Below are positions 1 through 57,698 of a DNA stretch of 57,767 bases, one piece after another (within the stretch, counting starts at the first letter, position 1; every line of letters starts with the position of its first letter). This DNA comes from a virus (Duplodnaviria > Caudoviricetes): the IMG/VR virus record IMGVR_UViG_3300030060_004810, positions 1 through 57,767 of that record. One strand, 5' to 3'. A program made the translations under genes and the position numbers. The notes under the pieces were generated by a model that saw nothing but the letters and a program-made list of their open reading frames with translations, searched no databases and was not told where the DNA came from.

Positions 1-98
1 TTCCTTCTTCACTGCTTTTGATGCACTCATGATTTGCTCCTTGCAATCTTGGCCCGTTGGCCTGTGTACGCGCCGAAAAGGTCCATGGGGAAAGAGTC
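1..98. repeat. Terminal direct repeat (circular assembly overlap), copy 1
   Basis: Bases 1-98 are identical to 57669-57766. Genes 27..602 and 56919..57698 join across it with an ATGA overlap. Confidence 0.95.
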
Positions 99-602
99 CC
101 CATTTTCCACCCGCTCTTTGACCCACGCTTTCAGCGTTTGCGCGTGGACCTCGGTTTTTTGCTCTGGGATGTAACCCATTCGCTGTGCCGCCTCCATGAA
201 GTCCACGGCCTGTTGGTCTTCGCCGCGGGCAAAGTTACAACTGACTGTGTTCTTGATGATGTCCCCGTAATCGTTATCTCGGAGCCATTGGAAGGCGTTT
301 TCACGGTCGGCCACTTTGATGTGGGCACCATAGGTCGCCTGTACGGTCACTTTGGAACCATCGTCGAGTTCGATGGCATTGAGGCCGAGTTCTGCCAGCA
401 TGGCTGGTAGGTCCTCGTCGGTCAGCTTCAGGAGGTCACGTTTGGCCTCTTTTAGCTTGTCATCAAGTTGTGACACCAGATCTTCTTGATTACGGATTGC
501 CCGTGCGATCTCAGCTACACTACTCAAGCCAGTATTGTCCATCTTCTCGATGGCGGAAGCCGTGACTTGGTCGGCTTCCATATCTAAGAGCATCTCGCTC
601 AT
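27..602 (-). CDS. Conserved phage replication-module protein (hypothetical, 191 aa)
   Basis: Start moved to MSEMLL, which follows AAAGGAGA at 607-614. Coiled-coil N-terminus. First gene of the replication operon. Confidence 0.8.
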   Translation of the reverse strand: MSEMLLDMEADQVTASAIEKMDNTGLSSVAEIARAIRNQEDLVSQLDDKLKEAKRDLLKLTDEDLPAMLAELGLNAIELDDGSKVTVQATYGAHIKVADRENAFQWLRDNDYGDIIKNTVSCNFARGEDQQAVDFMEAAQRMGYIPEQKTEVHAQTLKAWVKERVENGDSFPMDLFGAYTGQRAKIARSKS

Positions 603-639
603 TGCATCTCCTTTCGTGGTTAGGCCCTTTTTTGAGGGC

Positions 640-677
640 TGGACAGCCAGCGTACCATCGCATATTATTGCAGTCAA
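640..677. promoter_or_regulatory. Overlapping divergent sigma70-like promoters
   Basis: Plus strand: TGGACA(640-645)-17-TATTAT(663-668). Minus strand: TTGACT(677-672)-17-TACGCT(654-649). A TATGCGAT box lies at the centre. Confidence 0.7.
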
Positions 678-693
678 CACGCAGAGGGCCTAT

Positions 694-2145
694 ATGTACA
701 CTTTCGCGACACAACCTTACGAACATCAACAACAAGTCTTTAATGATTCGTGGCAACGGCCTTACTTTGGGCTTTTTATGGAGATGGGCACAGGAAAGTC
801 CAAGGTCGCCATTGACACGATGGGCGCGCTGTATGAGGCGAAGGAGATTAACACAGCTTTAGTCATTGCGCCCAAAGGTGTCTTTGATAACTGGGTGAAG
901 AAAGAAATACCCGCGCATTTGCCCGAGCGTATCCAGACAAAAATCGTCAAGTGGCAACCCAACTTCACTAAAAAGTTCCGTGAGGCAATACGCGAGATAG
1001 CTGACCCAGAGAAGCGTGAGCCGGGGTTCCTGCACATTCTGGTAATGAACACAGAAGCGTTCAGCACTCCCAAGGGTGCAACAGCCGCGGAACGGTTTGT
1101 GAAGCTTAACCCCAACTGCATCACGATTCTGGATGAAAGCACGACGATCAAGAACAAGGGTGCCCAGCGGACGAAGAACCTGATCAAGATAGGTCAGGCG
1201 TCCAAGTATCGACGCATCCTGACAGGCTCGCCCATCACTAAAAGCCCCATGGATTTGTTCAGCCAATGTGCGTTTCTGGAGCAAGAGGCGTTGGGCTTCA
1301 ACAGCTTCTATGGCTTTCAGGGCCGGTATGCGGTAGTTCAGCGCAGGAACATGGGGCCGCATAGTTTTAACGAGATTGTCGGATATCGTCGCTTAGATGA
1401 GCTTGGCGAGAAGCTGGACCGGTTTAGTAGCAGGGTGCTGAAAGAAGAGTGCCTTGATCTACCGGACAAGGTATACCTGCGGCGCGAGGTCAATCTAAGC
1501 AAAGAGCAGGTGGTGGTGTACAAGCAGATGCAAGATTTGGCGCTGGCACGGCTGGAAAAAGGCGAGTTGGCTACCACAGCCTCTGTCCTGACACAGATCA
1601 TGCGGCTACAGCAAATCTGTTGCGGTCACCTGCAACCAGACGAAGGACCGCTACAACCTATAAAAAACAATAGGTTACCGGAACTTCTTGATGTAGTTGA
1701 AGAAGTACAAGGCAAGGCAATTATCTGGGCGACTTGGACTCACGACATCCACGCCATCGAAGAGGCGTTGGCCAAGAAATATGGTCCGGGGTCCGTGGCC
1801 AGTTATTTCGGAGAGACGGCGCAGGAAGACCGGCAGGACATTATTGAACGCTTTCAAGACCCGGATTCGGAGCTACGGTTCTTTGTAGGTCAGCCCCGCA
1901 CCGGAGGCTACGGCATTACCCTGACAGAAGCGAACACCGTCATCTACTTCAGCAACAGCTACGATCTGGAGATTCGGTTGCAGTCCGAGGACCGCGCCCA
2001 CCGTATCGGCCAGAAAGACACGGTAACCTATGTTGATCTGGTGAGTCCGGGCACTATAGACGAAAAGATCCTGTCCGCGTTACGGGACAAGATCAATATC
2101 GCTGGTGATGTACTGGGCGAAAGCGCCAAGGATTGGCTGATTTAA
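694..2145 (+). CDS. SNF2-family (SF2) helicase/ATPase
   Basis: MEMGTGKS Walker A, ILDES Walker B, LTGSP, GGYGITLT and QSEDRAHRIGQ motifs. Start taken at MYTF, downstream of the promoter. Only plus-strand gene. Confidence 0.92.
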   Translation: MYTFATQPYEHQQQVFNDSWQRPYFGLFMEMGTGKSKVAIDTMGALYEAKEINTALVIAPKGVFDNWVKKEIPAHLPERIQTKIVKWQPNFTKKFREAIREIADPEKREPGFLHILVMNTEAFSTPKGATAAERFVKLNPNCITILDESTTIKNKGAQRTKNLIKIGQASKYRRILTGSPITKSPMDLFSQCAFLEQEALGFNSFYGFQGRYAVVQRRNMGPHSFNEIVGYRRLDELGEKLDRFSSRVLKEECLDLPDKVYLRREVNLSKEQVVVYKQMQDLALARLEKGELATTASVLTQIMRLQQICCGHLQPDEGPLQPIKNNRLPELLDVVEEVQGKAIIWATWTHDIHAIEEALAKKYGPGSVASYFGETAQEDRQDIIERFQDPDSELRFFVGQPRTGGYGITLTEANTVIYFSNSYDLEIRLQSEDRAHRIGQKDTVTYVDLVSPGTIDEKILSALRDKINIAGDVLGESAKDWLI

Positions 2146-24057: not shown

Positions 24058-24701
24058 TGTTTAGGCCTTATAACCATGCCGGTCATGTATTGATCCGTCA
24101 CCTCTTTCGATTCTCCAAACTGCTTCATACCAATAAGAGCATTTTGCAATTGAGCAGTGTACAGAGCTAGAACATCCTGCTCACCTTTCATAAAGGTGTA
24201 CGCCTCTAGCAAACTGCCGTATAACAGCGCCAAGGGCGCGTTTTCACTAAGCCACGACTGACTTGTATCGCTCAAACTGGTCAAACTGGCGGGTCGGTAG
24301 TAATAATGTAGCTCTGCCGTCAAAGCGGCATCTGGCGTAGGCGCTAAAATAAAATTACTGCTATCAAACATCGCGTAGTATTTAGGCGTACCTGTGGTGC
24401 TACTGTTGGGGTTAAACGTCTGCAAGAAGTTAACGTCCTTGTATTCAACAAAGATTTTGGACGAGGAAACCTCAAAAGAAAGCGAAAAAGGGGCCAAAAA
24501 ATCAGACGGGCAATCTAAAAATTGATTAGATGCCGTAGAAGTCCCAACCACATTTTTACGAAATACTGAAAGCTGTACATTCTTAAGAATGCGCTCTTCC
24601 GCATTACGGATAAACACGGGAAGATTATTGGTAAACGTCGTTTCGTCGTTTTCCGTGTAATCTTTTATGGCCTGTTTTAGTTCAGCGTAAGTAAAGCTCA
24701 T
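24054..24701 (-). CDS. Head-tail adaptor-like protein
   Basis: GTPKYYA, LAPTPD, HYYYRP and LLYGSL.EA motifs. Confidence 0.65.
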   Translation of the reverse strand: MSFTYAELKQAIKDYTENDETTFTNNLPVFIRNAEERILKNVQLSVFRKNVVGTSTASNQFLDCPSDFLAPFSLSFEVSSSKIFVEYKDVNFLQTFNPNSSTTGTPKYYAMFDSSNFILAPTPDAALTAELHYYYRPASLTSLSDTSQSWLSENAPLALLYGSLLEAYTFMKGEQDVLALYTAQLQNALIGMKQFGESKEVTDQYMTGMVIRPKQ

Positions 24702-28328: not shown

Positions 28329-28811
28329 TTAAGATGCGTCAGAAGTGCTGGATATTCCAAAAAACTTCAGGACAATAACCGTGTCACCGCCGGGATCTCC
28401 CGAGAGAACAATCTCAACTTCATCTGCCGTGCCCGTAGCCGCAGTGGTTGTTCCACCGGACATCCCAAGAACACCGTTACATGGAAAATACCCTTTAAAG
28501 CCGGTTGAATTTACAGCCGCAGAAATACCGTCAACAAAACCGTCAGTATCGGCATCTGTGCCGATATCGTTAAGCGTGACAGAGTTTGAAGATGCAGTGG
28601 TAACAGCAATTGTAACCGCCATAGGAATAAAGTTGTCTGGAATGCCAATCGCAGACTCTTTGCCCGTGGTAGCACCATCCGCCACCGTGATGGTCGCTTC
28701 GTAAGTAGAAAGCGTCATAGTGCTGGTTACAGCGCCGGTAGTAGAGTTTTTGGTAATGTCTGAGAAACCGTTTTCAGAACGGACGGGACCGTTAAACGTA
28801 GTATTAGCCAT
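28329..28811 (-). CDS. Putative minor capsid/decoration protein
   Basis: MANTTFNGPVRSENGF N-terminus, T/S/G-rich, first gene after the MCP terminator. Confidence 0.6.
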   Translation of the reverse strand: MANTTFNGPVRSENGFSDITKNSTTGAVTSTMTLSTYEATITVADGATTGKESAIGIPDNFIPMAVTIAVTTASSNSVTLNDIGTDADTDGFVDGISAAVNSTGFKGYFPCNGVLGMSGGTTTAATGTADEVEIVLSGDPGGDTVIVLKFFGISSTSDAS

Positions 28812-28881
28812 GAGGTTCTCCTGTCGTGGCCAGTGTCAGCCTCAGTATGGGGCTGTCAGGAAAAATTTATATTAACATAAA

Positions 28882-28926: not shown

Positions 28927-29832
28927 TTAGGCACCCGGTGTGCCAAAGACACAACGCCAATCGGAAACACCGAAACTGTAACGCTCACGCGCCTTGAAGC
29001 GCATGTTGCCAGTATCAAAGTCACCTTCCATTGCAGTCTTGATGGGGCTTCGGTTAAACATCTTGAAGCCGTTAGGTGCGTCAGTCTTAATGAAGAACGC
29101 ATCTGTGTCGGTCAAGAAATGGTTAACTACCGCGCCATCTGGGAGCATTCCCATAGACTTGGTTGCGTTGAGGTCATTGTCCGCAGTTCCCGGACGCAGG
29201 TTGGAGTTGATTACCCGCTCTGCAATAAATTGCAGTTCTTTCGGAATAATCATCTTCATACCACGTACCGCGATCTTCAGACCACGCTCATCGGTTAAAC
29301 CAGCAATATCAATCAGCATCTGCTCAAGAGAAGTCTCGTTGAGGTCAGCGGCGGTTGATAACAAGTTACGCTGGTTCCCTGAAAGGGACGGGTGAGCGGA
29401 AGAGCAGAGAGCGGCACCATCTCCAACAGGAGAACCGGTGCTAAAGGCGTTATTCAGAATTGAAGCGGCCTTAATCTGCTTGGTCTGGGACATGGATCGT
29501 GCCAAAGCACGGGTGTAACGAGAAGCAAGGCGGTCATACAGGTTGTCTTCAATCGCCTCTTCGGTGATTGAAAACGCTAGTGCAATCGTTTCGTGAGTAT
29601 AACGTGCAGTAAATGTCTCTTGCGCGTCATCAAACGAGATGGCACCACCCTCTGACTTAACCGGCGCAGTGCCGAAGCCAGACAGCATTACTTCTTCTTC
29701 AAAAGCACGATCAGAAGTTTCTTCTTCAAAAACTTCCGCGTGTTCCTGTTCGTAGCGATCATACTCAAGGCCAAAAAGAGCGTTAAGCCCCGGCTCAAGT
29801 TCCTTCGCCAACTGTGCGCGAGAAATAGCCAT
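28927..29832 (-). CDS. Major capsid protein
   Basis: MAISRAQLAKELEPGLNALFGLEY N-terminus, typical of vSAG 37-F6/HTVC023P-type capsids. Followed by a strong terminator. Confidence 0.9.
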   Translation of the reverse strand: MAISRAQLAKELEPGLNALFGLEYDRYEQEHAEVFEEETSDRAFEEEVMLSGFGTAPVKSEGGAISFDDAQETFTARYTHETIALAFSITEEAIEDNLYDRLASRYTRALARSMSQTKQIKAASILNNAFSTGSPVGDGAALCSSAHPSLSGNQRNLLSTAADLNETSLEQMLIDIAGLTDERGLKIAVRGMKMIIPKELQFIAERVINSNLRPGTADNDLNATKSMGMLPDGAVVNHFLTDTDAFFIKTDAPNGFKMFNRSPIKTAMEGDFDTGNMRFKARERYSFGVSDWRCVFGTPGA

Positions 29833-38892: not shown

Positions 38893-40377
38893 TTACCCGT
38901 AATATTGCATTGGCCGAAGATTTGCACTCTCATCTTCCCAATAATCTGATGGCAACTGCACAAAGTTACCCTGTCGGTATCGCATCAACGCCTGTGTCGT
39001 GCTGTCTACCAAGTCATCATACTCCCCATTAGGGAACGCCGCACACTCTTCTATCACATCGTGCGCCCAAGACTCATCCGGTGCCCAAATCATACCGCTT
39101 TCAAAAAGCGGAGAGACACTGTGTACCCGCGATACCTTATCGTTACCGCGACTCGGCGTAAAGTTTACCACAGGAATGCCCATGTTCCGTAGTTCGTGGG
39201 TCAAAGGCATACCACTCGCCTTTGCCTCAATAATTACCGTCTCAGGCTCCCAAAATTTGTAGGATTCCATCGCAACTTGCTTCAATTCAGGGAAATCCCA
39301 GCGCCCTTTCTTCGCATCCAGCAAAATCAGACCCGCAACCGTCCCTTCTTCAGGATAAAACACGCCCCAAGTCGTAATCGCACTGTAATCCGCCCGCGTA
39401 TTCTTGGAAAAAGCCGTGTCATAGCTCTGAATCACGTATTGCAACTGCGGAATCTGCTGTTTATCCCACACATTCCACCACTCACGCTTGATAATCGCGT
39501 TTTCATCACCCGTAGGGTTCTGCTGGTACTGGGCATTCCACTTCGGCAGAGGAATTGACGCTTTTACCGCTTGCATCTCCTCAAAAGACCAGAACTCAGG
39601 CCACAAAGGACCGCCCGAAGGCATCTCCATAGGGAACTCAATGACCTCCCAGTTGTCCGCCAAGGCGTCCCGACCCTGTGCCCGGATCAATTGACCCGTC
39701 AAATCCTTCTCTGACCACCTAGTCATCACCACAATGATGGCCCCGCCCGGTTGCAAACGCTGTCGAGGACCACCCGTGTACCAATCCCATGCATCATCAA
39801 AGCCACTCAGCGACATCGCGGTCTGCTCAGAGTGCGGATCGTCAATAATGATCAAGTCACCACCACGTCCCGCCAAGTTTGACCCCACACCCACGCCGTA
39901 ATACATACCACCACGGGCCGTGTCCCACCTGCCGGACGCCTTCGAGTCAGCAGAAAGCGCCGCATCGGGGAAAATTTCCAGATAATCATCCCTCTCCAGC
40001 AGATTCTTGATCTTCCGGCCAAAGTTGACCGCAAGCTCCGTGGTGTGCGTAGCCTGAATAATCTTCATCGCGGGGTTTTTACCAATCATCCAAGCCGGAA
40101 ACAGGAAACTCGCAAACTCAGACTTTGTGTGACGCGGCGGCATGTTGATGATCAACCGCTTCAACTCCCCACTGGCCACCCGCTCAAGCTTTTCCGCCAT
40201 GATCTTGTGGTGACGACCCGCAATAAACTCGGGCCACATCGTCCGGACAAAGCTCAAATAGTCCGTCTGACACGACTCAACCTGCTCAATCTGCGCCAGC
40301 CGGTATTCAAGCTTCAGAATCTTCTCTTCCGCTTCCTCTAAGGACTCAAAACTAGAACCATCACTCCGCATAAACAC
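38893..40377 (-). CDS. terL: Terminase large subunit
   Basis: INMPPRHTKS Walker A, IIIDDP Walker B, VMTRW, SYDTA and DDLVDS nuclease motifs. Confidence 0.93.
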   Translation of the reverse strand: MFMRSDGSSFESLEEAEEKILKLEYRLAQIEQVESCQTDYLSFVRTMWPEFIAGRHHKIMAEKLERVASGELKRLIINMPPRHTKSEFASFLFPAWMIGKNPAMKIIQATHTTELAVNFGRKIKNLLERDDYLEIFPDAALSADSKASGRWDTARGGMYYGVGVGSNLAGRGGDLIIIDDPHSEQTAMSLSGFDDAWDWYTGGPRQRLQPGGAIIVVMTRWSEKDLTGQLIRAQGRDALADNWEVIEFPMEMPSGGPLWPEFWSFEEMQAVKASIPLPKWNAQYQQNPTGDENAIIKREWWNVWDKQQIPQLQYVIQSYDTAFSKNTRADYSAITTWGVFYPEEGTVAGLILLDAKKGRWDFPELKQVAMESYKFWEPETVIIEAKASGMPLTHELRNMGIPVVNFTPSRGNDKVSRVHSVSPLFESGMIWAPDESWAHDVIEECAAFPNGEYDDLVDSTTQALMRYRQGNFVQLPSDYWEDESANLRPMQYYG

Positions 40378-41252: not shown

Positions 41253-41494
41253 GATTTGCCACCCTTGGCGCGCTTAAATTTTACGCCCATCTCAGCGAGT
41301 AGAGTGTCATCAAACTTTGCGAATTCTTCCGCGACTTGAAGGAAAGCGGGGTAGTGCTTTGCCAGTACCTTTCGGTTCTGCATATCCAGCGCACACACCG
41401 CGGTGTGGATTCGATCGGCGGCGGTAGCCAGTTCCCAAACGCGGGTCTTGGCTACGCCAACAGTCTCTAGTTCGTTTTGAAAGTTGTTAGACAT
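41249..41494 (-). CDS. Small early hypothetical protein (81 aa)
   Basis: Start MSNNFQ after TTTGGAGA. Confidence 0.75.
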   Translation of the reverse strand: MSNNFQNELETVGVAKTRVWELATAADRIHTAVCALDMQNRKVLAKHYPAFLQVAEEFAKFDDTLLAEMGVKFKRAKGGKS

Positions 41495-41501
41495 ATGTCT
41501 G

Positions 41502-41585
41502 TCTCCAAAGTGACGCCGCGACATTGCGGCAAGCGCAGTATGCGATAAAAGCCAGACAAAAAAAACCCCGCCTCGAGGGCGGGGT
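41502..41585 (-). promoter_or_regulatory. Repeated expression cassette 1 (terminator/promoter/5' hairpin/RBS)
   Basis: Terminator 41558-41585, -10 CATACT, hairpin GCCGC-AATGTC-GCGGC, TTTGGAGA. Confidence 0.85.
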
Positions 41586-41604: not shown

Positions 41605-41793
41605 CTATCTATCTCTCTTCGAGAATGACTCGGTCCACGCTATGAACACCGCCTTGGCTGTACTGCGATCCAAGTCGAAATTCTCTTCGAGCCATTGGGG
41701 CGCGCCGAACATGTTGATGGCGCCAGAATCCCGTAGGCTATCGAGTGTCTCAAAGTACTCAGAGTGTAAAGGCTGATCTGCTGAAATTTCCAT
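41605..41793 (-). CDS. Small early protein (62 aa, LD.LR.SG..NMFGA family)
   Basis: Start MEISAD after TTTGGAGA. Motif is common in small phage proteins. Confidence 0.75.
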   Translation of the reverse strand: MEISADQPLHSEYFETLDSLRDSGAINMFGAPQWLEENFDLDRSTAKAVFIAWTESFSKRDR

Positions 41794-41801
41794 AATTGTA
41801 T

Positions 41802-41883
41802 TCTCCAAAGATTCGCCGCGACATTGCGACCGTGAAACTATCGCATATCTCACGGGCAAAAAAAACCCCGCTCGAGGCGGGGT
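41802..41883 (-). promoter_or_regulatory. Repeated expression cassette 2
   Basis: Terminator 41858-41883, TATGC-GATAGT, hairpin GTCGC-AATGTC-GCGGC, TTTGGAGA. Confidence 0.85.
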
Positions 41884-41902: not shown

Positions 41903-42289
41903 TTAGGCGATTTTCTGATCAGCCGCGGACATGGTGTCGATTGTGTCGCGCATTTGAATATTGGCCCGCTCAATGTATTGGATATGAGCGGTTAAGCCGT
42001 CTATTAACGATCGGATCAGCGTAATAAATTCGGCCCCAGTGTCAGGACCCCCGCTCTCTAAAAACGTCTTCACCTTGTCATAGTCAACAGCATGCGCTTC
42101 GGGCATATCAACCCCATTTAACACGGCGGCCTCGATAACTTCGGCCATAGATATATTGCTGTTATCCATTAACTCGAGAATGTCTTCGGCATCATCCGCC
42201 GATACGCCATCGGGCACTTCGTCGCATACTTCGAAAGTCGCTGTGACTTCCACGTCTTGGTCTTGGCTCAAATCAATTCGTATCGCCAT
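41903..42289 (-). CDS. Small strongly acidic early protein (128 aa)
   Basis: Start MAIRID after TTTGGAGA; D/E-rich. Confidence 0.75.
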   Translation of the reverse strand: MAIRIDLSQDQDVEVTATFEVCDEVPDGVSADDAEDILELMDNSNISMAEVIEAAVLNGVDMPEAHAVDYDKVKTFLESGGPDTGAEFITLIRSLIDGLTAHIQYIERANIQMRDTIDTMSAADQKIA

Positions 42290-42297
42290 GGTTCTAA

Positions 42298-42380
42298 TCT
42301 CCAAAATGAAAGCCGCAAAATTACGGCACGGCTAGTGTCGCATATGCGGCGGGCAAAAAAAACCCCGCCGAGGCGGGGTT
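42298..42380 (-). promoter_or_regulatory. Repeated expression cassette 3
   Basis: Terminator 42355-42380, TATGC-GACACT, hairpin GCCGTA-ATTT-TGCGGC, TTTGGAGA. Confidence 0.85.
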
Positions 42381-42406: not shown

Positions 42407-42544
42407 TCATGCAACGCCGAGACACTTTTTCAGGTTGGCAATATCCACCGCGTCCCGTCCCGTATGAGTGGGCTTCGCTAACAATCGAGCGAGGGCGCGC
42501 TCCTGCCGCACCCGCTTCCCTTTTTTCCTCCAAGCTTTTGCCAT
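42407..42544 (-). CDS. Small basic early protein (45 aa, not in ORF track)
   Basis: Hand translation: MAKAWRKKGKRVRQERALARLLAKPTHTGRDAVDIANLKKCLGVA, after TTTGGAGG. Confidence 0.7.
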   Translation of the reverse strand: MAKAWRKKGKRVRQERALARLLAKPTHTGRDAVDIANLKKCLGVA

Positions 42545-42552
42545 GGTCTTAT

Positions 42553-42632
42553 CCTCCAAAGTCGCCGCAACATTACGGCAACGCATACTCTCGCATATAT
42601 GGCGGATAAAAAAAACCCCGCCGAGGCGGGGT
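42553..42632 (-). promoter_or_regulatory. Repeated expression cassette 4
   Basis: Terminator 42608-42632, TATGC-GAGAGT, hairpin GCCGTA-ATGT-TGCGGC, TTTGGAGG. Confidence 0.85.
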
Positions 42633-42638
42633 CAAATG

Positions 42639-42830
42639 TCACTTAGGGTGATACCAACTGGGGGCGCGGGCTTGCTCCCCGTGGCGTTGCCAATAGTCGG
42701 CATAGTGTCGCGCCTCCTGATACATTCGGAACCAATCCGGATTGCTCTGGGGAAATCGTGAGCGCATCGCCGCCCGATGCCAGCGCAAATACCGCGCCGC
42801 CTTTGCCCGCCAACATTCTCGCTTATTCAT
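42639..42830 (-). CDS. Small R/W-rich early protein (63 aa)
   Basis: ATGA-coupled; ends at the terminator. Confidence 0.65.
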   Translation of the reverse strand: MNKRECWRAKAARYLRWHRAAMRSRFPQSNPDWFRMYQEARHYADYWQRHGEQARAPSWYHPK

Positions 42831-43522
42831 GACGCGGCCCCTATCAAATCGGGGTTATCCACCACAAAGCCGGACCGATCCCGCCGCGCTGATCCTTTCG
42901 GGGTTAGCCCGACGATTTGACCAGTGGCAAATGCGTTAGCGATATCGTCTCGATCCCCATCGATAACGGGGCGCCCGCGAAACATCCGCGGAAACCCGCC
43001 GCGGAAAACTACCGCCACGGGGGCGTCGGTTTGGAAAGCCCGCCGGTTTTGGTTTCGGTACTGGGGCCGCCCGCTATAGCTAAAAATTAGCTTGTAGTTA
43101 TCGGGGGTTTTTCCAAGTCTCGCCGCAACCTTTGAATAGTCCACAAACAAAAGCTCGGGGTGCGCTTGCGGTATCCCGTACCGCTCCCATTTAACGTCCG
43201 AGAGAACATTAAGACGGACCGCGCCACGCTCGCCAGTGCGCTCACAAAGCTTTGTGAAGTTTGTTAGCTCTCGGTGCAATTGCTCGAGAAACCCCGCCCG
43301 ATCATTATGCAAGTATGCCGCCTTACGCTGGCGCGCCTCCCGCACGTTATCAAACCGCCCGCGGCCTTGCTCAGAAAGGCACTCCGCCATACACCCCGCC
43401 GCCTTAGCTCCCGCGCAAAGTATGTTATCCGGATAAAGCGATAACCCCGCATAACGAAAGGGGGCCGCCTTGCCCGTTTTTTTCAGTTTGGGGTTCGCGC
43501 CCCGAGTATCTAATAATTGCAT
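42827..43522 (-). CDS. Gene product 88-like protein
   Basis: N.KL.K, C......GC...CL..GRG, RLNVLSD, DYSK and DGD..D motifs. Confidence 0.65.
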   Translation of the reverse strand: MQLLDTRGANPKLKKTGKAAPFRYAGLSLYPDNILCAGAKAAGCMAECLSEQGRGRFDNVREARQRKAAYLHNDRAGFLEQLHRELTNFTKLCERTGERGAVRLNVLSDVKWERYGIPQAHPELLFVDYSKVAARLGKTPDNYKLIFSYSGRPQYRNQNRRAFQTDAPVAVVFRGGFPRMFRGRPVIDGDRDDIANAFATGQIVGLTPKGSARRDRSGFVVDNPDLIGAAS

Positions 43523-43641
43523 TAGTTCACCCCCATCAAAAGCTTTTTAAGATCCGCTACAGAACGGCCAGACCTTGCGGATAGCTCGGCAAGGGTGATG
43601 TTAGTTCTATCGAATAAGTTAATAATTTGCTGATCACTCAT
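43522..43641 (-). CDS. Small HTH-like protein (39 aa)
   Basis: MSDQQIINLFDRTNITLAELSARSGRSVADLKKLL after TTTGGAGA. Confidence 0.65.
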   Translation of the reverse strand: MSDQQIINLFDRTNITLAELSARSGRSVADLKKLLMGVN

Positions 43642-43649
43642 TTTTGTAT

Positions 43650-43728
43650 TCTCCAAAGTCGCCGCCCATCGCGGCCCGCTTAGGCTATCGCATACAGCAG
43701 ACAAAAAAAAGCCCCGCCGGAGCGGGGC
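43650..43728 (-). promoter_or_regulatory. Repeated expression cassette 5
   Basis: Terminator 43703-43728, TATGCGA-TAGCCT, hairpin GCCGC-GATGG-GCGGC, TTTGGAGA. Confidence 0.85.
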
Positions 43729-43746
43729 AAACTTTGGAGTGTTAAA

Positions 43747-43915: not shown

Positions 43916-45049
43916 TTAAGCCGCCATCGCCACGCGTTGCCAATCGGAGCGGGGCAGATCCAACACGCGCCCGCCAAGCTTTTGCCAATCGTCCACACTG
44001 TCAGCGTCGGCGGTATGCGCTACCGCCGTGACTGCGTTTACCATAGTGGCACGGGTAACCGGCTGACCGGCATAGCCCGACTGACCGATAGTGGCCAACA
44101 GGCCATCCATCAAACTGGCGGTATCCTTTTTAGTAAGCGCCAGCACTTTGCCCATGGCCTCGACTGCCGACTGTGGCGAGCCTTCGACTTTGTCATCGTG
44201 CGCGGTTTTCATCTTTTCCAGCACTTCGTCAAATGACTCACGGCTGGCATATGCCGCGGTAACGTCCCGCATTTGAAGCGCCAATGCGTGATTGTCCGCG
44301 TCTTTTGCTTCATCCGTCAGCAAGCCCCACGTATCAGCATCGCCTCGAGCGCCAGTGATGTGAGACTTGCGGGTACGCTTTTCGGTTTGCATACCGTTTA
44401 GGCAGGCCAGCGTCCAAAACATTTGGTACACGTTAACGCTACCGCACCCGACTTCGCTGTTAGACATACCAATACCAAGCGCCATGATGTCACCCACCGC
44501 CGCGCCCTCGCCAGTAATAACCGCTGATTTCAGTCGGAGGTACAGGCGCTTATCAGTCACCGTCCCATTTACCACTTGCCATTGGGCGTCACTTTCCATT
44601 AGCTCGGGCAGGGCCGAATTCAACAGGTGAACATTGTCGAAAGTCTTAAACTTATCGCTGACAAACGCTCGAGCCGTGCCCGCGTTATCAGTGTGCTGGA
44701 ATGAACGAATCATTCGCACCGCCGGTTCCTTCTGCCAAATAGCGTTAATCAGGCCATCGAATTCGCGGGAGTAATCCTGCTGAAGGCGGCGGGCAGTCCG
44801 GACATCAATACCGGCCCGCTGGCTGATTTGGTCAAACGCCACATCATTAGCGGACAGAATTTGGGTGGGTGCACCCCCCGTCTGCTCCATAATGATCTGA
44901 CTGACTTTACTACCGTCACCCATATCGCCGGTCACAAGCTGAAGCTGATTAGTCGGGGCCAGAAAGTCTTGCGATCTGGCGGCTTGGTCCTGTACCTGTT
45001 GAAGCAAACGGGTCAGGGTTTGATCTGAGTTTTCAATTGAATTTTGCAT
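43916..45049 (-). CDS. DUF932-like protein
   Basis: RAFVSDKF..FDN, NSEVG.GS and CLNGM motifs. Confidence 0.7.
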   Translation of the reverse strand: MQNSIENSDQTLTRLLQQVQDQAARSQDFLAPTNQLQLVTGDMGDGSKVSQIIMEQTGGAPTQILSANDVAFDQISQRAGIDVRTARRLQQDYSREFDGLINAIWQKEPAVRMIRSFQHTDNAGTARAFVSDKFKTFDNVHLLNSALPELMESDAQWQVVNGTVTDKRLYLRLKSAVITGEGAAVGDIMALGIGMSNSEVGCGSVNVYQMFWTLACLNGMQTEKRTRKSHITGARGDADTWGLLTDEAKDADNHALALQMRDVTAAYASRESFDEVLEKMKTAHDDKVEGSPQSAVEAMGKVLALTKKDTASLMDGLLATIGQSGYAGQPVTRATMVNAVTAVAHTADADSVDDWQKLGGRVLDLPRSDWQRVAMAA

Positions 45050-45055
45050 AGTTGT

Positions 45056-45170
45056 TCTCCAAAAGAGCGCGGCAGAATTGCCGCACAGCCACTATCGCAT
45101 ACGGGGCCGTGCAGGACAACAGTTTTTTTAAAAATTTCTACAGGCATGAAAAACCCCGCTGGGGCGGGGT
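45056..45170 (-). promoter_or_regulatory. Repeated expression cassette 6
   Basis: Terminator 45149-45170, TTGTCC-17-GATAGT with TATGC, hairpin GCGGCA-ATTC-TGCCGC, TTTGGAGA. Confidence 0.82.
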
Positions 45171-45795: not shown

Positions 45796-46013
45796 GACTC
45801 GATCTCCCGCAGTGCCGCCTTAATTTGCTTGGTGGCTATGAGGCGTTGAAGAATCTGTACCTTTTCCTCAAGGTCTTCAACTAAATCCTCTGAAATATCA
45901 ATTTTAGTGATCTTCTCAAAAGAGACATCGGATAGATGCTCCTCAAGGTGGTCTATGGCCACTTGAAGCGCGTTGAATTGGAGAGGCGTCAGCCCCGTAA
46001 ATGACATGTTCAT
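45792..46013 (-). CDS. Small hypothetical protein (73 aa)
   Basis: Start MNMSFT after TTTGGAGA. Confidence 0.7.
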   Translation of the reverse strand: MNMSFTGLTPLQFNALQVAIDHLEEHLSDVSFEKITKIDISEDLVEDLEEKVQILQRLIATKQIKAALREIES

Positions 46014-46018
46014 TGTTT

Positions 46019-46079
46019 TCTCCAAATGACAGGCAACATTGCCCACCGACAGTATATGCGGGTCAGCGCATACTTGCAA
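46019..46079 (-). promoter_or_regulatory. Lead cassette 7: canonical promoter with palindromic box
   Basis: TTGCAA-17-TATACT, TATGCG-N6-CGCATA palindrome (46055-46072), hairpin GGCA-ATGT-TGCC, TTTGGAGA. Confidence 0.8.
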
Positions 46080-46497
46080 TACTTGTAAGGACCTCTCTGT
46101 AGGAAACAGGGAAACTGAAATGCTTATCCGGTGTAGCCCGCAATCCGTCCTGCCATACGTCCACTGCTCGATTGCCTCGATAAAGGAACACCTCATGTCC
46201 TGTGGCGCTGGTCAGCTTAACGGCTATCCAGACACTGCCCTTGGCATGTTGGGTCATAAACGCAACTTGGTGGGGAGACATCTTCACGCTCATGTTTGCC
46301 GTGGTCTTCAGTTCCACCATGTGCCAATTACCCTGACTGTCCATGATCAGGACATCCGGCACACCCAAGGTGGCTCTGGATTCTAAGCGTGTGGCTGACC
46401 AATCAGGAAAGTTGTCCCTCATCGCTTTCTTCAGAGACTGCCAGAAGCTCGCCTCCCTCTGTTTCTTCGTCTTCGGCTTCCCGTCCAGTATGTCCAT
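46063..46497 (-). CDS. VRR-NUC / PD-(D/E)xK nuclease (resolvase-like)
   Basis: E...W, GVPDV, VELK and SPHQ motifs. Confidence 0.8.
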   Translation of the reverse strand: MDILDGKPKTKKQREASFWQSLKKAMRDNFPDWSATRLESRATLGVPDVLIMDSQGNWHMVELKTTANMSVKMSPHQVAFMTQHAKGSVWIAVKLTSATGHEVFLYRGNRAVDVWQDGLRATPDKHFSFPVSYREVLTSIASMR

Positions 46498-47092
46498 CTG
46501 TTTCCTCCGCTAAACGCTCTCGAGCGCGTTTTCGATTACCAGCGTCCTCTGCCCCCGCGTCATGGGTCAAAGGGGCGTAGGTCTGCTTCAGTTCGTTCAA
46601 AGCTTTCATGACCTCTTCTTTGCTCATCTGCTCAATCGTGCCGTGGCGAATCTCTGTCTTGTTAACGTAGATGTCGCCCTGCGCCTGACCCCTGCGGTAC
46701 TCAGCCTGCACTGCCGCACTGAACGCCCCCTGCTCAAGGGCGGCATCTCGAATAAGTTGCAGATCTCTCAGGTGGCGCTGGTATTCCACGCCGTACTTCT
46801 GATCAAGCTCCTGCCGATACTCTCGAATGGCTCTGCACACATGGGGGGAGATGCGGGGATTGGTTAGCTCAGAAGCGCGGACATGAGCAGACTTCTCAGG
46901 GTAGCCAGCATTGATGGCCGCTTCCCGCATGGTGATCTGCCCGTCCTTTGCTACAAGCTCACGTACAAACAATTCCTGCCTGCGGGTCAAACGCTTCTCT
47001 GCCAAAGGGGGTCGGTTCGTCTGCTGGCGCTTTGCTTCCGGCAAAGCCGCCGCTTTGGTGTCCAAAACATTGGCGTATCTGTTCTTGGCCAT
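46403..47092 (-). CDS. terS: Terminase small subunit
   Basis: LTRRQELFV...EAAINAGY..KSA...ASEL HTH signature. Confidence 0.8.
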   Translation of the reverse strand: MAKNRYANVLDTKAAALPEAKRQQTNRPPLAEKRLTRRQELFVRELVAKDGQITMREAAINAGYPEKSAHVRASELTNPRISPHVCRAIREYRQELDQKYGVEYQRHLRDLQLIRDAALEQGAFSAAVQAEYRRGQAQGDIYVNKTEIRHGTIEQMSKEEVMKALNELKQTYAPLTHDAGAEDAGNRKRARERLAEETDGHTGREAEDEETEGGELLAVSEESDEGQLS

Positions 47093-48914: not shown

Positions 48915-49108
48915 CCCCGCTTACTGGTCATGGGGCGCATGTATCGTTCTTCGGCAAGTTGCACACGTTTCTTGGACCCGTCTGCCCACATGATCTCCAT
49001 CCACTTACGGCCCCGCTTCAAGATAGCCGCGGCCCGTGTTCCGTTATCCGTGTGGTATAGCACGGGTTCCCAGCCCCTGTTGAGGGCTTTTCGATAAGTC
49101 AGTTTCAT
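48911..49108 (-). CDS. Small basic hypothetical protein
   Basis: 65 aa after TAGGAGA. Confidence 0.75.
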   Translation of the reverse strand: MKLTYRKALNRGWEPVLYHTDNGTRAAAILKRGRKWMEIMWADGSKKRVQLAEERYMRPMTSKRG

Positions 49109-49133
49109 AGTTTTCTCCTAGTAGCCATAAAAC

Positions 49134-50021: not shown

Positions 50022-50356
50022 CTAAACCTGTTGCCTAGCAAGGCTTTGGACCTCTCGAGGCAACGATTGTAAGACTTACAGCAGTAATTGTCTGCCCGCG
50101 GCGTCAATAGCGTATCGAGGATTCTACGGACGGTTCTCCAAAAGCAACTTTCAGTGGTTCTGAAAGCACGGCTGGATATTGTTTCCGCAGGGTTTCCGCC
50201 AAATAAAATGTTTAGCGCAATAGATAGACCGTCAATCAAGTCAACCACATAGACTTTTGCTCGTTTTAGCTTTGGGTTTTTCAACATTTTTTTCATCCGA
50301 GGGTAATGGTCAAGGTGTAAAGCTGAAACGTCTATGATAATTGTGGTTTCTCTCAT
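50018..50356 (-). CDS. Hypothetical protein (G.P.ETISSR family)
   Basis: Start MRETT is ATGA-coupled. LN..FGGNPAETISSRA motif. Confidence 0.65.
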   Translation of the reverse strand: MRETTIIIDVSALHLDHYPRMKKMLKNPKLKRAKVYVVDLIDGLSIALNILFGGNPAETISSRAFRTTESCFWRTVRRILDTLLTPRADNYCCKSYNRCLERSKALLGNRFR

Positions 50357-50574
50357 CCAACTATGCCTACCAAGCTCATAATCAAAAGGATACCACCAAG
50401 GATGGCGTACTCTTTCCATGTCATCGGCTTGAATTTCTCGGGCTCTGCTTCGTTGTCCGTGGTCCCTGACGCTTCGACGCCGCCCACTGTGACCCACGCC
50501 TCATTCTCTGGTGTGTTCGGGTCATCTGCCACAAACCGCCCGCTCTCTGTTCTCGCTCGCTTTTTAGCCATCAC
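50353..50574 (-). CDS. Small membrane protein
   Basis: RAR...GRFVADDPNTPENEAW motif and C-terminal TM helix; TAGGAGA RBS. Confidence 0.7.
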   Translation of the reverse strand: MMAKKRARTESGRFVADDPNTPENEAWVTVGGVEASGTTDNEAEPEKFKPMTWKEYAILGGILLIMSLVGIVG

Positions 50575-50606
50575 GTTCTCCTATATCGGTGTACGATGGT
50601 TCCCAT

Positions 50607-50635
50607 AAACTAACATATATGCAGACGCCGCGCAA
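50607..50635 (-). promoter_or_regulatory. Sigma70-like promoter fused to terminator U-tract
   Basis: TTGCGC-17-TAGTTT with extended TG. Confidence 0.55.
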
Positions 50636-50660
50636 AAAAAACCCGGCTCTGGGGCCGGGT
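50634..50660 (-). terminator. Intrinsic terminator
   Basis: ACCCGGC-loop-GCCGGG-U8. Confidence 0.85.
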
Positions 50661-50763
50661 CGGGATCATCATTTCGCAGTCACTTTGGAGAAAACTATGG
50701 TTGATCCCTAATAGCTCTTAGGAGTTCTGCGATAACCCCCATGAGAAGTCATCGCAGGACCCC
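50634..50763 (-). ncRNA. Candidate 3'-UTR-derived sRNA antisense to the early-gene RBS
   Basis: A ~19-bp hairpin, then a stem-loop presenting UUUUCUCCAAAGUGAC, then a terminator. Confidence 0.55.
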
Positions 50764-50769
50764 AATCTA

Positions 50770-50943
50770 TCACTCAGGTCGGATAATTTCAAGAACCTCC
50801 ATGGTCGCCTCTGACAGGGGCGTAATGGACAAATCTTTTTGAATAGCTACGGGCTGTTTGAGCCGATTAGCAGTTTGCTGTCCGGCTTGTATGGAAATCA
50901 GCACGTCTTCAATTTCTTCTTGGGTTATTAACATCTTTCGCAT
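50770..50943 (-). CDS. Small hypothetical protein (57 aa)
   Basis: Start MRKMLI; last gene of the replication operon. Confidence 0.6.
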   Translation of the reverse strand: MRKMLITQEEIEDVLISIQAGQQTANRLKQPVAIQKDLSITPLSEATMEVLEIIRPE

Positions 50944-51088
50944 CGTGTTCTCGCACCGCTTCACTTTTAGCTTGGAGCAACTGTTGCCAGACTTCCAGCT
51001 TATCGAACTGATCCTTGGACACCGTGCCGTTTGCAAAGTCCTCTTCAAACTTTTTCAAAGCTTTATCAAACTCTTGCTGGATGGTCAT
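50909..51088 (-). CDS. Small helical protein (59 aa, not in ORF track)
   Basis: Hand translation: MTIQQEFDKALKKFEEDF... ATGA-coupled. Confidence 0.65.
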   Translation of the reverse strand: MTIQQEFDKALKKFEEDFANGTVSKDQFDKLEVWQQLLQAKSEAVREHDAKDVNNPRRN

Positions 51089-51315
51089 ATGCTAAAGCTC
51101 TTGGAACTCAGAGGGGCATCGTTCTCTTTCTTGAACGTGTCCACCTGCTCAGAGATGTACTCCTGATCACGATTGGACAGATTCTGCATCTTCCATTGCT
51201 CAATGATGTAGCGCAGTTGTCCGCTGATAGTGCGGCCTTCGACGCGGGCAATGACCACCACTTCCTCGTACACGTCTCGAGGTAACAAAGTGGATTTCCA
51301 TTTGGTTGTATCCAT
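51085..51315 (-). CDS. Ribbon-helix-helix-like DNA-binding protein
   Basis: WKSTLLP strand, DVYEEV...A..EGRTISGQLR.II helices; TAGGAGA RBS. Confidence 0.65.
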   Translation of the reverse strand: MDTTKWKSTLLPRDVYEEVVVIARVEGRTISGQLRYIIEQWKMQNLSNRDQEYISEQVDTFKKENDAPLSSKSFSI

Positions 51316-51782: not shown

Positions 51783-53684
51783 TTAATCAAGCTCTTCACC
51801 CTCACCCCAACTTGGCCCGTAGTCCACGTCACATTTGTTGGGAACCTGCAATGGCACGGCGTTTTGCATGATTTCTGAAAGCTCACGAGCGTGGTCCTCG
51901 CTCTCGACTGAGAAGGCCAGTTCGTCATGCACCTGTAGCATGGGCACGTGCCCTGCTTCACACACGTCCACCATGGCCTGCTTGGTCATGTCCGCGGCAG
52001 ACGCTTGGATCAGGCGGTTCAGAGCTTTATAGGTGTAAGCTCGACGTAGTCTGGTCGTTGGTCCGTGAGCCGCGATGGCTTCTTCTCGAGGCAGGGCTTT
52101 GTGCATTTCAAACGCGTCAGGCTCCCAGAGGTCAAAGCGGCATTTTCTACCGCGCAGGGACCGCACACTACCGGATGACCGCGGGTCCTCCAGTTTCTTC
52201 TGTACGCCTTTCATGAGTCCTTTTACGAAGGGGACGCGCTTGTGATATTGCTGGGTCAGGGCTTTGGCTTCGTCCACGCTGACATCCAGTTGATCTGACA
52301 ATTTATTAACACCCATCCCATACATCATTCCGAGGTTGATGACCTTGGCTTGCTTGCGGGGAATGCGGGCCATCTCGCTGACCATCGTGTGAAAATCCAT
52401 GTTGGGATCATTTCGGTACGCATCCACAAAAGCCTCGACGCCCTCTAACGGCATACCCTTGTAATCACCGTAGTTCTTCGCGAAATGCACCAAGATCCGC
52501 GGCTCTTGTTGCGAGAAGTCGATAGCCGCCCACTGCTGGCCCTCTTCTGGTAGAAACAACGAGCGGATCATAGGGCCTAGCTCTGGGTCGCGGGCCGGTA
52601 TCTGTTGCAGGTTGGGCGAGTTCATGGAGATGCGGCCTGAGACGGTGCCTCCGTCGTCTGACCGTAGCTGGTTGATATGGCTATGAATCCTGCCGTCATG
52701 CACGTATTTCAGGATACCATCGATAAACGAGCCGCTGGTCTTGTTGAGGTTGCGGGCTTTGACGATCCACTTGGCGAGGTCGTGGTTATGTTCCGACAGA
52801 AACGATTTGGTAAAGCTGGGTGCCCCTTTCTCTGTACTGGGGTAAGGGATGCTCAGTTTGTCGAAAGCCTTGGAGATAGATTGCGCCGCCCAAATTTCTA
52901 CATCTGTGCCTGCCAATGCTTTGATTTGTTTAAGAGCTTCTTTCTCCTGCTTGATCAGGACTTGCTTGGTCCGTTCAGCGCGGTCCAAGTCTACCCGTAT
53001 GCCGCGCTTCGTCATCTCGACAAGGTGCGGTAGCAGGCGAATCTCTAGGTTCCACACGTCCCACAGGTCTTCACGGTTCAGCAGGGTCTTGAAGTGATTC
53101 CATAGCTCCAGCGTAATCTCTGCGTCTGTCTCCGCGTAGGGGCCGACATACATAGCAGGGAGCTTCCACATCTCGCCCTTGGGGTCCACGCCAAACTCCT
53201 TTGCGGCCTCTACCAGTGTCTTTTCGGACTTGGTCTTGCCGAGGTAGTCGTAGCACAGGGCATTTAGGCTGTAGCTGAAGCGGTTTTCGTCAATCAAGCT
53301 GGCGGTAATCATGGTATCGATCACGCGGCCTTTGACTTCAAAGCCCTCTGCACGTAGCCAGCCAAGATCGTACTGGGCGTTGTGCATGATCTTGTCGGCA
53401 GGGCACTCAAAGACCTTTTTGAGCCATTTGCTGACAATACGCTTGTCTAAGTTGCCGCCGCCTGCGTGACCCACAGGGACATAGCATTTCCAGCCGCCTA
53501 CCGCTATTGCATAGCCCACCACCTCGCCGTCCTTCGTTGGCCAGCCCGGTCCTTTCTGCTTGAGGTTCGGGTCGCGTGTTTCAACGTCTATGGCTATTTC
53601 GTCGGCGTCAAAGATGTCCGGCAACTCCATCGGGGGCACCCAATCGGATTTGGGCGGGAACATCGCCATCTGTAGCTTTGTCAT
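51783..53684 (-). CDS. polA: DNA polymerase family A with 3'-5' exonuclease
   Basis: DVET and HNAQYD exonuclease motifs; DFSQQEPR, KVINLGMMYG and VHDEL polymerase motifs. Confidence 0.95.
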   Translation of the reverse strand: MTKLQMAMFPPKSDWVPPMELPDIFDADEIAIDVETRDPNLKQKGPGWPTKDGEVVGYAIAVGGWKCYVPVGHAGGGNLDKRIVSKWLKKVFECPADKIMHNAQYDLGWLRAEGFEVKGRVIDTMITASLIDENRFSYSLNALCYDYLGKTKSEKTLVEAAKEFGVDPKGEMWKLPAMYVGPYAETDAEITLELWNHFKTLLNREDLWDVWNLEIRLLPHLVEMTKRGIRVDLDRAERTKQVLIKQEKEALKQIKALAGTDVEIWAAQSISKAFDKLSIPYPSTEKGAPSFTKSFLSEHNHDLAKWIVKARNLNKTSGSFIDGILKYVHDGRIHSHINQLRSDDGGTVSGRISMNSPNLQQIPARDPELGPMIRSLFLPEEGQQWAAIDFSQQEPRILVHFAKNYGDYKGMPLEGVEAFVDAYRNDPNMDFHTMVSEMARIPRKQAKVINLGMMYGMGVNKLSDQLDVSVDEAKALTQQYHKRVPFVKGLMKGVQKKLEDPRSSGSVRSLRGRKCRFDLWEPDAFEMHKALPREEAIAAHGPTTRLRRAYTYKALNRLIQASAADMTKQAMVDVCEAGHVPMLQVHDELAFSVESEDHARELSEIMQNAVPLQVPNKCDVDYGPSWGEGEELD

Positions 53685-56918: not shown

Positions 56919-57698
56919 TTAAAAGGGTGCGTCTTCTCCTGCACCCGCGCCATCGTCGGTGTGTTTGACTTCAACCTCACCGCGCAGAATGGATTCGGAA
57001 AACTCTTTGGCTTGCATGTAGTGTGCGCCGTCTTCGACAACACCTTCCAAGCTGATGTCCCAGCCATGCCAGCTACCCTTGCTGTTCTCTTCAGAGACAG
57101 TTTTGAGCAGATAAATGTGGCTGAAACGGGGTGGTGTGAACGGCCCGTTTTTGCCCACTAAAGTGCGTTGGGCAATCGTGGAGTTCCACCTACGGCTTTT
57201 CTTCAACTGCGTAGATTTCATCGGTATCAAGGCAGTCGTAGTCGTGCCGTCCTCTTCAAGAATGACGACGAAGTGCTGGTGCGTCTCCTCGAGGTACGTG
57301 CCGTTACCGCCGACAACATAGTCTTTATTGTCGTTCGGGTCCCGCTCAACTTTCGGCAAAGTGTCCTCCGGCGTATAGATGTTTACAGGAGCGCCACTGC
57401 CAGTGCCCCGAGGAGCCCACTCAATAAAGCGCCGCTGATAAGCTGAAGGTATGACACGAATACCTGTCTTACCAGAATAGACCGTATTCGATACGGTATT
57501 GAGGATATCGCCTGCCTTCGCGTCGTCCAGATCATCCAGCACTGGGTCCTGACGGCTGAGAAGCTTGAGGAAAGGTAACGCCAGATCGTCCTGACCCAAA
57601 TTTTCAAGGCCGAGATTAGCGTCTTGTTCAAAGATGTCCGGGCTAAACGGTACGATTTCATTAGCCTCTTCCTTCTTCACTGCTTTTGATGCACTCAT
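56919..57698 (-). CDS. Putative single-stranded DNA-binding/annealing protein
   Basis: DLALPFLK, MKSTQLKKSR.WN and N.KGSW motifs; acidic C-terminal tail ending PF; upstream of primase. Confidence 0.65.
   Translation of the reverse strand: MSASKAVKKEEANEIVPFSPDIFEQDANLGLENLGQDDLALPFLKLLSRQDPVLDDLDDAKAGDILNTVSNTVYSGKTGIRVIPSAYQRRFIEWAPRGTGSGAPVNIYTPEDTLPKVERDPNDNKDYVVGGNGTYLEETHQHFVVILEEDGTTTTALIPMKSTQLKKSRRWNSTIAQRTLVGKNGPFTPPRFSHIYLLKTVSEENSKGSWHGWDISLEGVVEDGAHYMQAKEFSESILRGEVEVKHTDDGAGAGEDAPF

Follow-up and report, generated by a model that had tools for sequence, protein, structure and literature searches.

A candidate small RNA at the 3' end of the replication operon

The window analyzed here is the whole 57,767-bp record IMGVR_UViG_3300030060_004810, a complete IMG/VR phage with nearly all genes on the minus strand, and the element under study is a candidate small RNA (sRNA) encoded on that strand at about 50763-50634. 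The element follows the replication module, which includes genes for a family A DNA polymerase (51783-53684, minus strand) and, just upstream of the sRNA, a ribbon-helix-helix protein (51085-51315, minus strand). A small protein gene ending at 50770 (minus strand) is the last open reading frame (ORF) of the module and lies directly before the sRNA. This small gene probably starts at the ATG near 50942, because only residues 45-92 are conserved in most relatives.

The minus-strand RNA 50775-50625 had a minimum free energy of -57.5 kcal/mol, compared with a mean of -44.55 kcal/mol (sd 3.77) for 200 dinucleotide shuffles, none of which was as stable (0/200, z = -3.44). An earlier sequence-only reading of this DNA had described a three-part fold, which was recovered here: a 5' hairpin of 19 pairs (5 + 14) at 50763-50721, the 3' side of which bears the conserved motif ACUCC(UAA); a 7-bp stem, P2, formed by GGGAUCA (50708-50702) and UGAUCCC (50668-50662) and enclosing the CUCCAAAGUG loop; and an intrinsic terminator with its stem at 50661-50640 and a U8 tract at 50641-50634, all on the minus strand. 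Within P2, the anti-leader loop CAUAGUUUUCUCCAAAGUGAC occupies 50699-50679 (-), with its core CCAAAGUG at 50688-50681, and the central loop UCCAAAG has an unpaired probability of 0.73-0.99.

A consensus scan identified a promoter-like site at 50792-50764 (-), composed of the -35 hexamer TTGAAA (50792-50787), a 17-nt spacer, and an extended -10 element of the form TG-A-TAGATT (TG at 50772-50771 and TAGATT at 50769-50764; TGATAGATT spans 50772-50764). This site overlaps the TGA stop codon of the upstream small gene. From its position, transcription would begin near 50757, and the predicted RNA would be about 124 nt long (~50757 to 50634). The TTGAAA-17-TGATAGATT promoter and the U8 terminator together provide the sequence signals of a separate transcription unit, as expected of a trans-acting sRNA. 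The element also has the placement of an sRNA located in a 3' untranslated region, since it lies on the same strand as the operon (polymerase, nuclease, ribbon-helix-helix, and small genes), after its last coding sequence, and ends at the operon terminator. When the whole window was searched against Rfam 15 at gathering thresholds, only Mu-gpT-DE was matched and no family was assigned to the sRNA; a permissive Rfam scan of 50560-50840 gave RF02278 as the best hit (19.1 bits against a threshold of 50) and did not match the C4 antisense RNA.

Conservation of the element among relatives

An IMG/VR search with the polymerase provided 80 loci of 99-72% identity among the matches listed (at least 600), and a search with the small terminase found 389 relatives, from which 80 loci were fetched. 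The small upstream gene with its flanks was found in the window region (L001) and in 35 polymerase loci, yielding 25 distinct downstream sequences. In most of them the upstream protein has an identity of only 37-64%, yet all 25 share one plan. A variable 5' hairpin bearing ACUCC(UAA) comes first and is followed by a linker rich in A and U, then by a stem around ..CUCC(C)AAAGUGA.., and last by a terminator. The CUCC of the 5' hairpin motif was at least 90% conserved in these variants. A covariance model built on this shared plan, R1, was used to scan the loci and gave exactly one match of 50-85 bits in the window (50634-50710, 62.8 bits) and in each of the loci L003-L036 that reach the site, as well as 36 further matches in the 80 small-terminase loci. 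The element is thus discrete, conserved, and structured at the place where the sequence-only reading had put it.

Among 30 distinct sequences, both sides of P2 changed in six of the seven pairs, and 91.9% of cells remained paired; the covariation score was 0.296 versus 0.128 in shuffles, with 0/500 shuffles reaching the observed value, and controls with a slid partner gave at most 0.078. Two MAFFT alignments (A1 and A2) misaligned the 5' arm, and alignment A3 and the model-based alignments A5 and A7 were used instead. G-U or U-G pairs occur at four positions of P2 and would be A-C mismatches on the opposite strand, which fits an RNA transcribed from the minus strand only. The loop core U.CCAAAGUG was invariant in all 30 distinct variants, with variable flanks.

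A promoter of the form TTGAnn-(16-18)-TAnnnT, nearly always with a spacer of 17 and often with TG before the -10 element, was present in 24 of the 25 variants, against a background of 0.31 sites per kb. In the relatives, it lies from -9 to +27 relative to the upstream stop codon and 49-75 nt from the loop. Because this promoter has been kept so widely, the sRNA is probably a gene in its own right at the 3' end of the replication operon; readthrough from that operon could yield it as well. It need not be produced together with the replication genes, as proposed earlier, since it appears to have its own sigma-70-type promoter.

Toward more distant relatives the element disappears. R1 gave no match at E <= 0.01 in the more distant loci L037-L082, the region 3' of the ribbon-helix-helix gene contained no equivalent element in 11 distant loci, and two complete distant relatives lacked the sRNA (best R1 score, 24 bits). 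Where they could be read, the TATGCGATA-type cassettes of these two complete genomes had ordinary or different leaders without CACUUUGG. The distant loci L090 (G006:1-12000), L091, and L092 lack the RNA, and their TATGCGATA-type cassettes share another leader motif, UAUGGGAA. Two weak R1 matches, G006:348-417 (24 bits) and G008:828-902 (27 bits), consist of a stem and terminator without the CCAAAGUG loop and were not counted as support; the loop of the former, CCCCAUA, has only 6 nt complementary to the UAUGGGAA leader motif.

Cassette genes and their leaders

Between the small-terminase-like gene (46403-47092) and the large terminase gene (38893-40377), the minus strand from 46.1 to 40.9 kb carries small genes that each form their own unit. 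The order within a unit is an intrinsic terminator, an extended -10 promoter-like motif of the TATGCGATAG type, a GC hairpin (GCCGCAAUGUCGCGGC and variants), the leader, a spacer of about 7 nt, and the AUG. The leader, (C)ACUUUGGAGA, is single-stranded. The products are 39-377 aa long and mostly unannotated, the only family matches being to the GP88 family and phrog_1362. The sequence-only reading called these genes early, and this label is an assumption; the cassettes sit between the two terminase genes. Relatives carry two leader sub-types, ACUUUGGGAGA and GACACUUUGGGAA, which jointly use both halves of the invariant loop.

Several further observations concern these units. They are moron-like, and in the 41553-region unit the motif is inverted (TATCGCATA). 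The replication operon itself starts behind a motif of the same class (TATGCGATGGT, ~600-664, minus strand), with an ordinary AAAGGAG leader that lacks ACUUUGG. The near-palindromic TATGCGATA could be an operator of the ribbon-helix-helix protein.

Complementarity of the loop to cassette leaders

To score matches, plus-strand 50676-50702 was compared with the gene-sense strand for exact identity. When the 33-nt loop region was slid over the whole sense strand with RNAduplex, the result was uninformative (504 clusters at or below -12 kcal/mol, with large interior loops), and exact matches and a short-seed duplex ranking were used instead. The longest matches, 13 nt each, fall at the starts of two genes. 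One lies in the leader of the 81-aa gene (GUCACUUUGGAGA...AUG, 41494-41514, match 41514-41502), with a duplex energy of -25.1 kcal/mol and rank 1 of 144; the other covers the Shine-Dalgarno (SD) sequence, spacer, and AUG of the 65-aa gene called 49108 (GGAGAAAACUAUG, 49106-49118, rank 4/144), which has a promoter of a different type, TTGACG-18-TAAAAT. Next in length are the leader and start of the 73-aa gene (46013-46026, 12-nt match 46026-46015, rank 2/144) and those of the 39-aa gene (43641-43659, 11-nt match 43659-43649, rank 3/144), which is followed by the GP88-family gene at 42827-43522. Shorter matches were found for the 62-aa gene (41793-41810; 10 nt, 41810-41801; rank 10/144), the 45-aa gene (42544-42562; 9 nt, 42562-42554; rank 5/144), the 377-aa phrog_1362 gene (45049-45063; 9 nt, 45063-45055; rank 6/144), and the 128-aa gene (42289-42305; 8 nt, 42305-42298; rank 7/144), all of these features being on the minus strand. 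The match lengths given for all leaders in the sequence-only reading (13, 13, 12, 11, 10, and 8-9 nt) were exact.

Seven of the 11 exact sense-strand matches of at least 9 nt lie in cassette leaders. The other four, each of 9 nt, are an intragenic site at 50142, the spacer and ATG of the 9004 gene, and sites at 24119 and 1368. In the window there are 12 copies of the motif TTTGGAGA, where 2.3 (sd 1.3) would be expected, an excess of about five-fold; none of 100 shuffles reached 12, and the minus strand holds 10 of the copies. A ranking of 144 sense-strand sites resembling an SD sequence plus start by their duplex energy with the loop put the eight cassette starts at places 1-7 and 10, which indicates a complementarity directed at these particular genes rather than at SD sequences in general. 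The loop is complementary to the cassette leader motif beyond the SD core, as the sequence-only reading had claimed. CUCC, which that reading placed at the apex, is not the whole of the invariant pairing core: CCAAAGUG stands opposite CACUUUGG, which overlaps the SD sequence and reaches upstream of it.

Two side observations belong to these motifs. The 9-nt match at 50142-50134 (-, UUUGGAGAA) stands after a hairpin inside a coding region that matches phrog_3342, and may be due to chance or may be an internal target. Text searches with CACTTTGGGAG returned human papers only; this string is also part of a frequent human repeat, which we take to be Alu.

Co-variation of the loop with the leaders

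Leaders were collected as UUUG(2-6)[AG]...AUG within 75 nt downstream of a promoter motif. The loop reads CUCC-AAAG in the clade of the window and CUCCC-AAAG in other relatives, and the leaders differ in step. In genomes with the CC loop, all 26 leaders were of the GG type (UUUGGAG; 7/7 in the window, 5/5 in L093, 1/1 in L095, 8/8 in L097, and 5/5 in L099). In loci with the CCC loop, 74 of the 75 leaders were of the GGG type (UUUGGG), the remaining one having GGGG. The loci L101 and L107 combine the window-type P2 backbone with a CCC loop, and their leaders were GGG in 5/5 and 2/2 cases, respectively. This co-variation is telling because the loop and as many as eight dispersed leaders have changed in concert. 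Co-variation between seed and ribosome-binding site (RBS) in related phages, which the sequence-only reading had proposed as a check, thus came out positive.

A second sequence in the window follows the same rule. The anti-leader ACACUCCAAAGU at 43742-43731 (-) lies in an element spanning 43703-43742, follows a small ORF that ends with TGA at 43750-43748, and is contained in a small hairpin abutting a terminator (43728-43711, then U8). Relatives carry ACACU(U/C)CCCAAAGUGU and a terminator at the same place, and the C-run is 2 in four distinct sequences of the window clade and at least 3 in 16 others. This matching split indicates that the phage has two terminator-adjoining anti-leader sequences, both tracking the leaders.

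The 5' half of the sRNA contains another conserved CU-rich motif, ACUCCUAA (50738-50731, minus strand), which lies in the loop of a small hairpin in several lineages. It was considered as a second seed for the leaders and rejected: G-U wobble pairing would be possible in the CCC/GGG genomes, but the motif is unchanged in the CC/GG clade.

Genomic setting of the phage

The replication module also encodes an AEP primase, a UvrD-type helicase, and an SNase-like nuclease. Genes resembling Pam3 gp33 (27-680, minus strand) and Pam3 gp34 (56919-57698, minus strand) belong to the same module and lie at opposite ends of the record, which indicates that the linear record is circularly permuted and that the replication operon spans its ends. 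Among four plus-strand ORFs scanned, the only one with a Pfam match encodes an SNF2-family helicase (535-2145, plus strand). The Mu-gpT-DE RNA motif of Rfam is at 28809-28861 (-, 65.4 bits, threshold 49), just 3' of the ORF at 28927-29832.

The polymerase is 49-56% identical to those of the nearest named phages (DSL-LC04, 023Pt_psg01, and the Pelagibacter phages HTVC023P and HTVC027P), and a blastn search of 50300-51100 against 50,697 GenBank phage records gave no match. The phage is probably virulent, because a search for integrase or resolvase genes found none and one complete relative has direct terminal repeats. As a clue to the host, tRNA genes were looked for and none were found. A polymerase scan of genome contigs gave nine loci, all in metagenome-assembled genomes, and pinned no host; eight of them, at 50% identity or more, come from five unrelated groups, and the remaining one has 33%.

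Interpretation and alternative explanations

The in silico support described above consists of the structure, its conservation, the promoter and terminator signals, the complementarity, the specificity for cassette leaders, and the loop-leader co-variation. The reading we favor, with a probability of roughly 0.6, is that the element acts in trans as an antisense RNA and represses the translation of the cassette genes. The loop ..UUUUCUCCAAAGUGA.., presented by the covarying stem, would pair in trans with the single-stranded leader (C)ACUUUGGAG(A), which in seven or more promoter-hairpin-RBS cassettes (41.5-46.0 kb) comes after the 5' hairpin, and would also pair with the RBS of the 49108 gene. 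The binding of 30S would then be blocked at the cassette starts, resulting in coordinated translational repression; this is the most likely effect because the predicted 8-13-bp duplex covers the SD sequence GGAG. Faster mRNA decay would probably accompany the repression. Taken together, the sequence comparisons suggest that one RNA tunes a whole set of phage genes. We infer from them the production of the RNA, its pairing in the cell, and the repressive sign of its effect, along with any temporal role in an early shut-off.

Several points weigh against this reading. The change between CC/GG and CCC/GGG amounts in essence to a single event within one clade, and the many leaders and loci do not count as independent cases; the accessible, conserved seed with a compensatory change, as expected of a trans-acting sRNA, is therefore found as one evolutionary event, with partial exceptions in two loci. 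In L034, the loop reads UUUUCC (UUUUCCAAAGUGG) beside a GGG leader, so that pairing needs G-U wobble, and in L033 a CCC loop occurs with one GGGGG leader. The leader filter requires UUUGG..., so that cassettes without the motif, such as L022:7788 and the leader of the replication operon at ~600-664, went uncounted. Some loop-leader matches are short (8-9 nt). The pair counts for P2 come from an alignment fitted to the model, which favors the structure, although the arms can also be read directly. Finally, the ACUCCUAA motif is conserved yet unlinked to the CC/CCC co-variation, and the leaders do not explain it.

It is possible, though unlikely, that the RNA is real and has another main job, such as acting on a host mRNA, as a decoy or sponge, as an activator, or in exclusion or heteroimmunity against co-infecting relatives, with the leader complementarity being only part of the story. 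The conserved ACUCCUAA motif, which the leaders do not account for, fits such a function, the promoter class of the sRNA differs from that of the cassettes, and the CC/GG and CCC/GGG types resemble the specificity classes of the P1/P7 c4 RNAs, as part of PMC12197685 presents them. However, the invariant loop core exactly complements the leader consensus of the phage itself and co-varies with it; lysogenic immunity is difficult to reconcile with the failure to find an integrase or resolvase; and the search for a host led to no target that can be named. An action in cis only, in which a structured 3' end terminates transcription and protects the upstream mRNA, or else pairs with a leader on the same or a readthrough transcript and silences readthrough translation, and in which no diffusible regulator exists, would suit an element that closes the replication operon in a strong terminator. 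The second anti-leader also stands about 95 nt upstream of the next cassette leader, so that a readthrough RNA would hold both partners. We nevertheless judge this improbable: the next gene after the main element, which starts near 50571, carries another kind of leader, AUAUAGGAGAACGUG, and in relatives, too, the motif is missing at that place; conservation extends to a dedicated promoter; and a stabilizing hairpin would not require 8 invariant loop nucleotides that complement leaders several kb distant.

Two further explanations were weighed. Since the motif occurs in both orientations that change together and a ribbon-helix-helix gene (51085-51315) lies just upstream, CACTTTGG(G)AG might be a double-stranded site bound in either orientation by a phage or host protein, the inverted copies being operators and the co-variation reflecting a change in protein specificity. 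Against this quite improbable view, both inverted copies stand in RNA contexts (the loop of a covarying stem with G-U pairs and the small hairpin abutting a terminator), the direct copies always stand at an RBS after the 5' hairpin of a transcript, and a one-base change in a G-run is an unlikely route to a new operator specificity. The sequence-only reading had itself named the alternative of a decayed inverted cassette start, consisting of an RBS and ATG GTT GAT CCC TAA, without function and beside an ordinary terminator. The plus strand indeed shows a perfect RBS, a spacer, and an ATG with a 4-codon ORF at 50697-50711, and the ATG is kept in 11 of the 30 variants. Its absence from the other 19 led us to reject both the mini-ORF and the decayed cassette, an origin that is also highly improbable on other grounds: the plus strand has no remnant of a cassette promoter or hairpin, and beside a flanking protein of only 37-64% identity the element has been conserved, with a stem that covaries, including G-U pairs, and an invariant loop. 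Overall, a trans-acting antisense RNA accounts better than any of these alternatives for the finding of an invariant loop together with a covarying stem, a promoter of its own, and a matched leader change.

Comparison with known regulatory systems

The target of the c4 RNA is one antirepressor operon in a temperate phage; RNA and target start out on a common transcript, from which c4 is cut. The P4 CI RNA is named alongside it as a similar system. According to part of PMC12197685, the phages P1 and P7 encode c4 as a structured RNA with loops that complement the region of a phage mRNA where ribosomes bind and block its translation, with small differences between RNA and target setting the specificity types. 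As far as that account goes, c4 is the closest system in mechanism, sharing an anti-RBS loop and types defined by small differences. The candidate sRNA differs in having its own promoter, in its presumed targets, which are at least 7-8 separate transcription units sharing a leader, and in the lack of an integrase among the genes found. With targets in separate promoter-terminator units 1.5-9 kb away and neither integrase nor resolvase found, it does not have the make-up of a P1/P7 c4-type immunity RNA.

In T4, RegB cuts GGAG in the SD sequences of early mRNAs, and RegA, whose gene lies in the replication cluster, competes with ribosomes on about 30 mRNAs, as set out in a portion of PMC3014915. 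Within the limits of that source, the common feature is post-transcriptional control of a set of mRNAs through their initiation regions, and the sRNA would be a functional RNA counterpart. RegA and RegB are proteins, whereas the sRNA would use base pairing over 8-13 nt, so that its specificity is written in the sequence and can be traced by co-variation. P22 sar and lambda OOP are described in the same part of PMC12197685 as small phage antisense RNAs that pair with a phage mRNA and lower its expression. These are cis-encoded opposite a single target, whereas 1.5-9 kb separate the present RNA from its presumed targets, and a short seed is all that it has in common with them.

Among bacterial sRNAs, DapZ, CpxQ, RsaE, and RoxS represent RNAs that share the terminator at a 3' end or use CU-rich loops against SD sequences. 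The candidate resembles them in lying at an operon 3' end, using the operon terminator, having an internal promoter in or at the end of the upstream coding sequence, and carrying a short, single-stranded C/U-rich seed against the SD sequences of several mRNAs. It differs in being phage-encoded, in lacking similarity to Rfam families, and in a putative regulon made up of the mosaic cassettes of the phage itself, with a dedicated leader motif.

Implications

Each of the known phage antisense RNAs (c4, sar, and OOP) acts on one locus, and most come from temperate model phages. Where many phage genes are shut off together after transcription, the known agents are proteins, T4 RegA and RegB. A literature search at the level of abstracts turned up no phage sRNA acting on several of the phage's own genes.

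A more far-reaching and speculative version, which we hold to be distinctly unlikely, is that RNA and leader form a co-evolving orthogonal pair of CC/GG and CCC/GGG types. In that case, a phage-wide RNA address code, helped by the anti-leader at 43742-43731, would gate every mosaic accessory cassette that bears the leader. A new gene would then join the regulon by insertion behind a promoter-hairpin-leader module, and the types would make co-infecting relatives mutually insensitive or would selectively silence the cassettes of a competitor; abundant virulent marine phages would then have an incompatibility system based on RNA.

With the CC/GG and CCC/GGG variants, nature has in effect already set up a compensatory-mutation experiment, and the module could serve as a compact orthogonal part for translational control. 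If the favored reading is true, one RNA controls a regulon of at least eight phage genes through a dedicated leader motif. Such a regulon would explain why independent mosaic cassettes have a promoter-hairpin-leader module in common, and the element occurs in a large clade of uncultivated marine phages, with at least 600 polymerase relatives and 389 small-terminase relatives.

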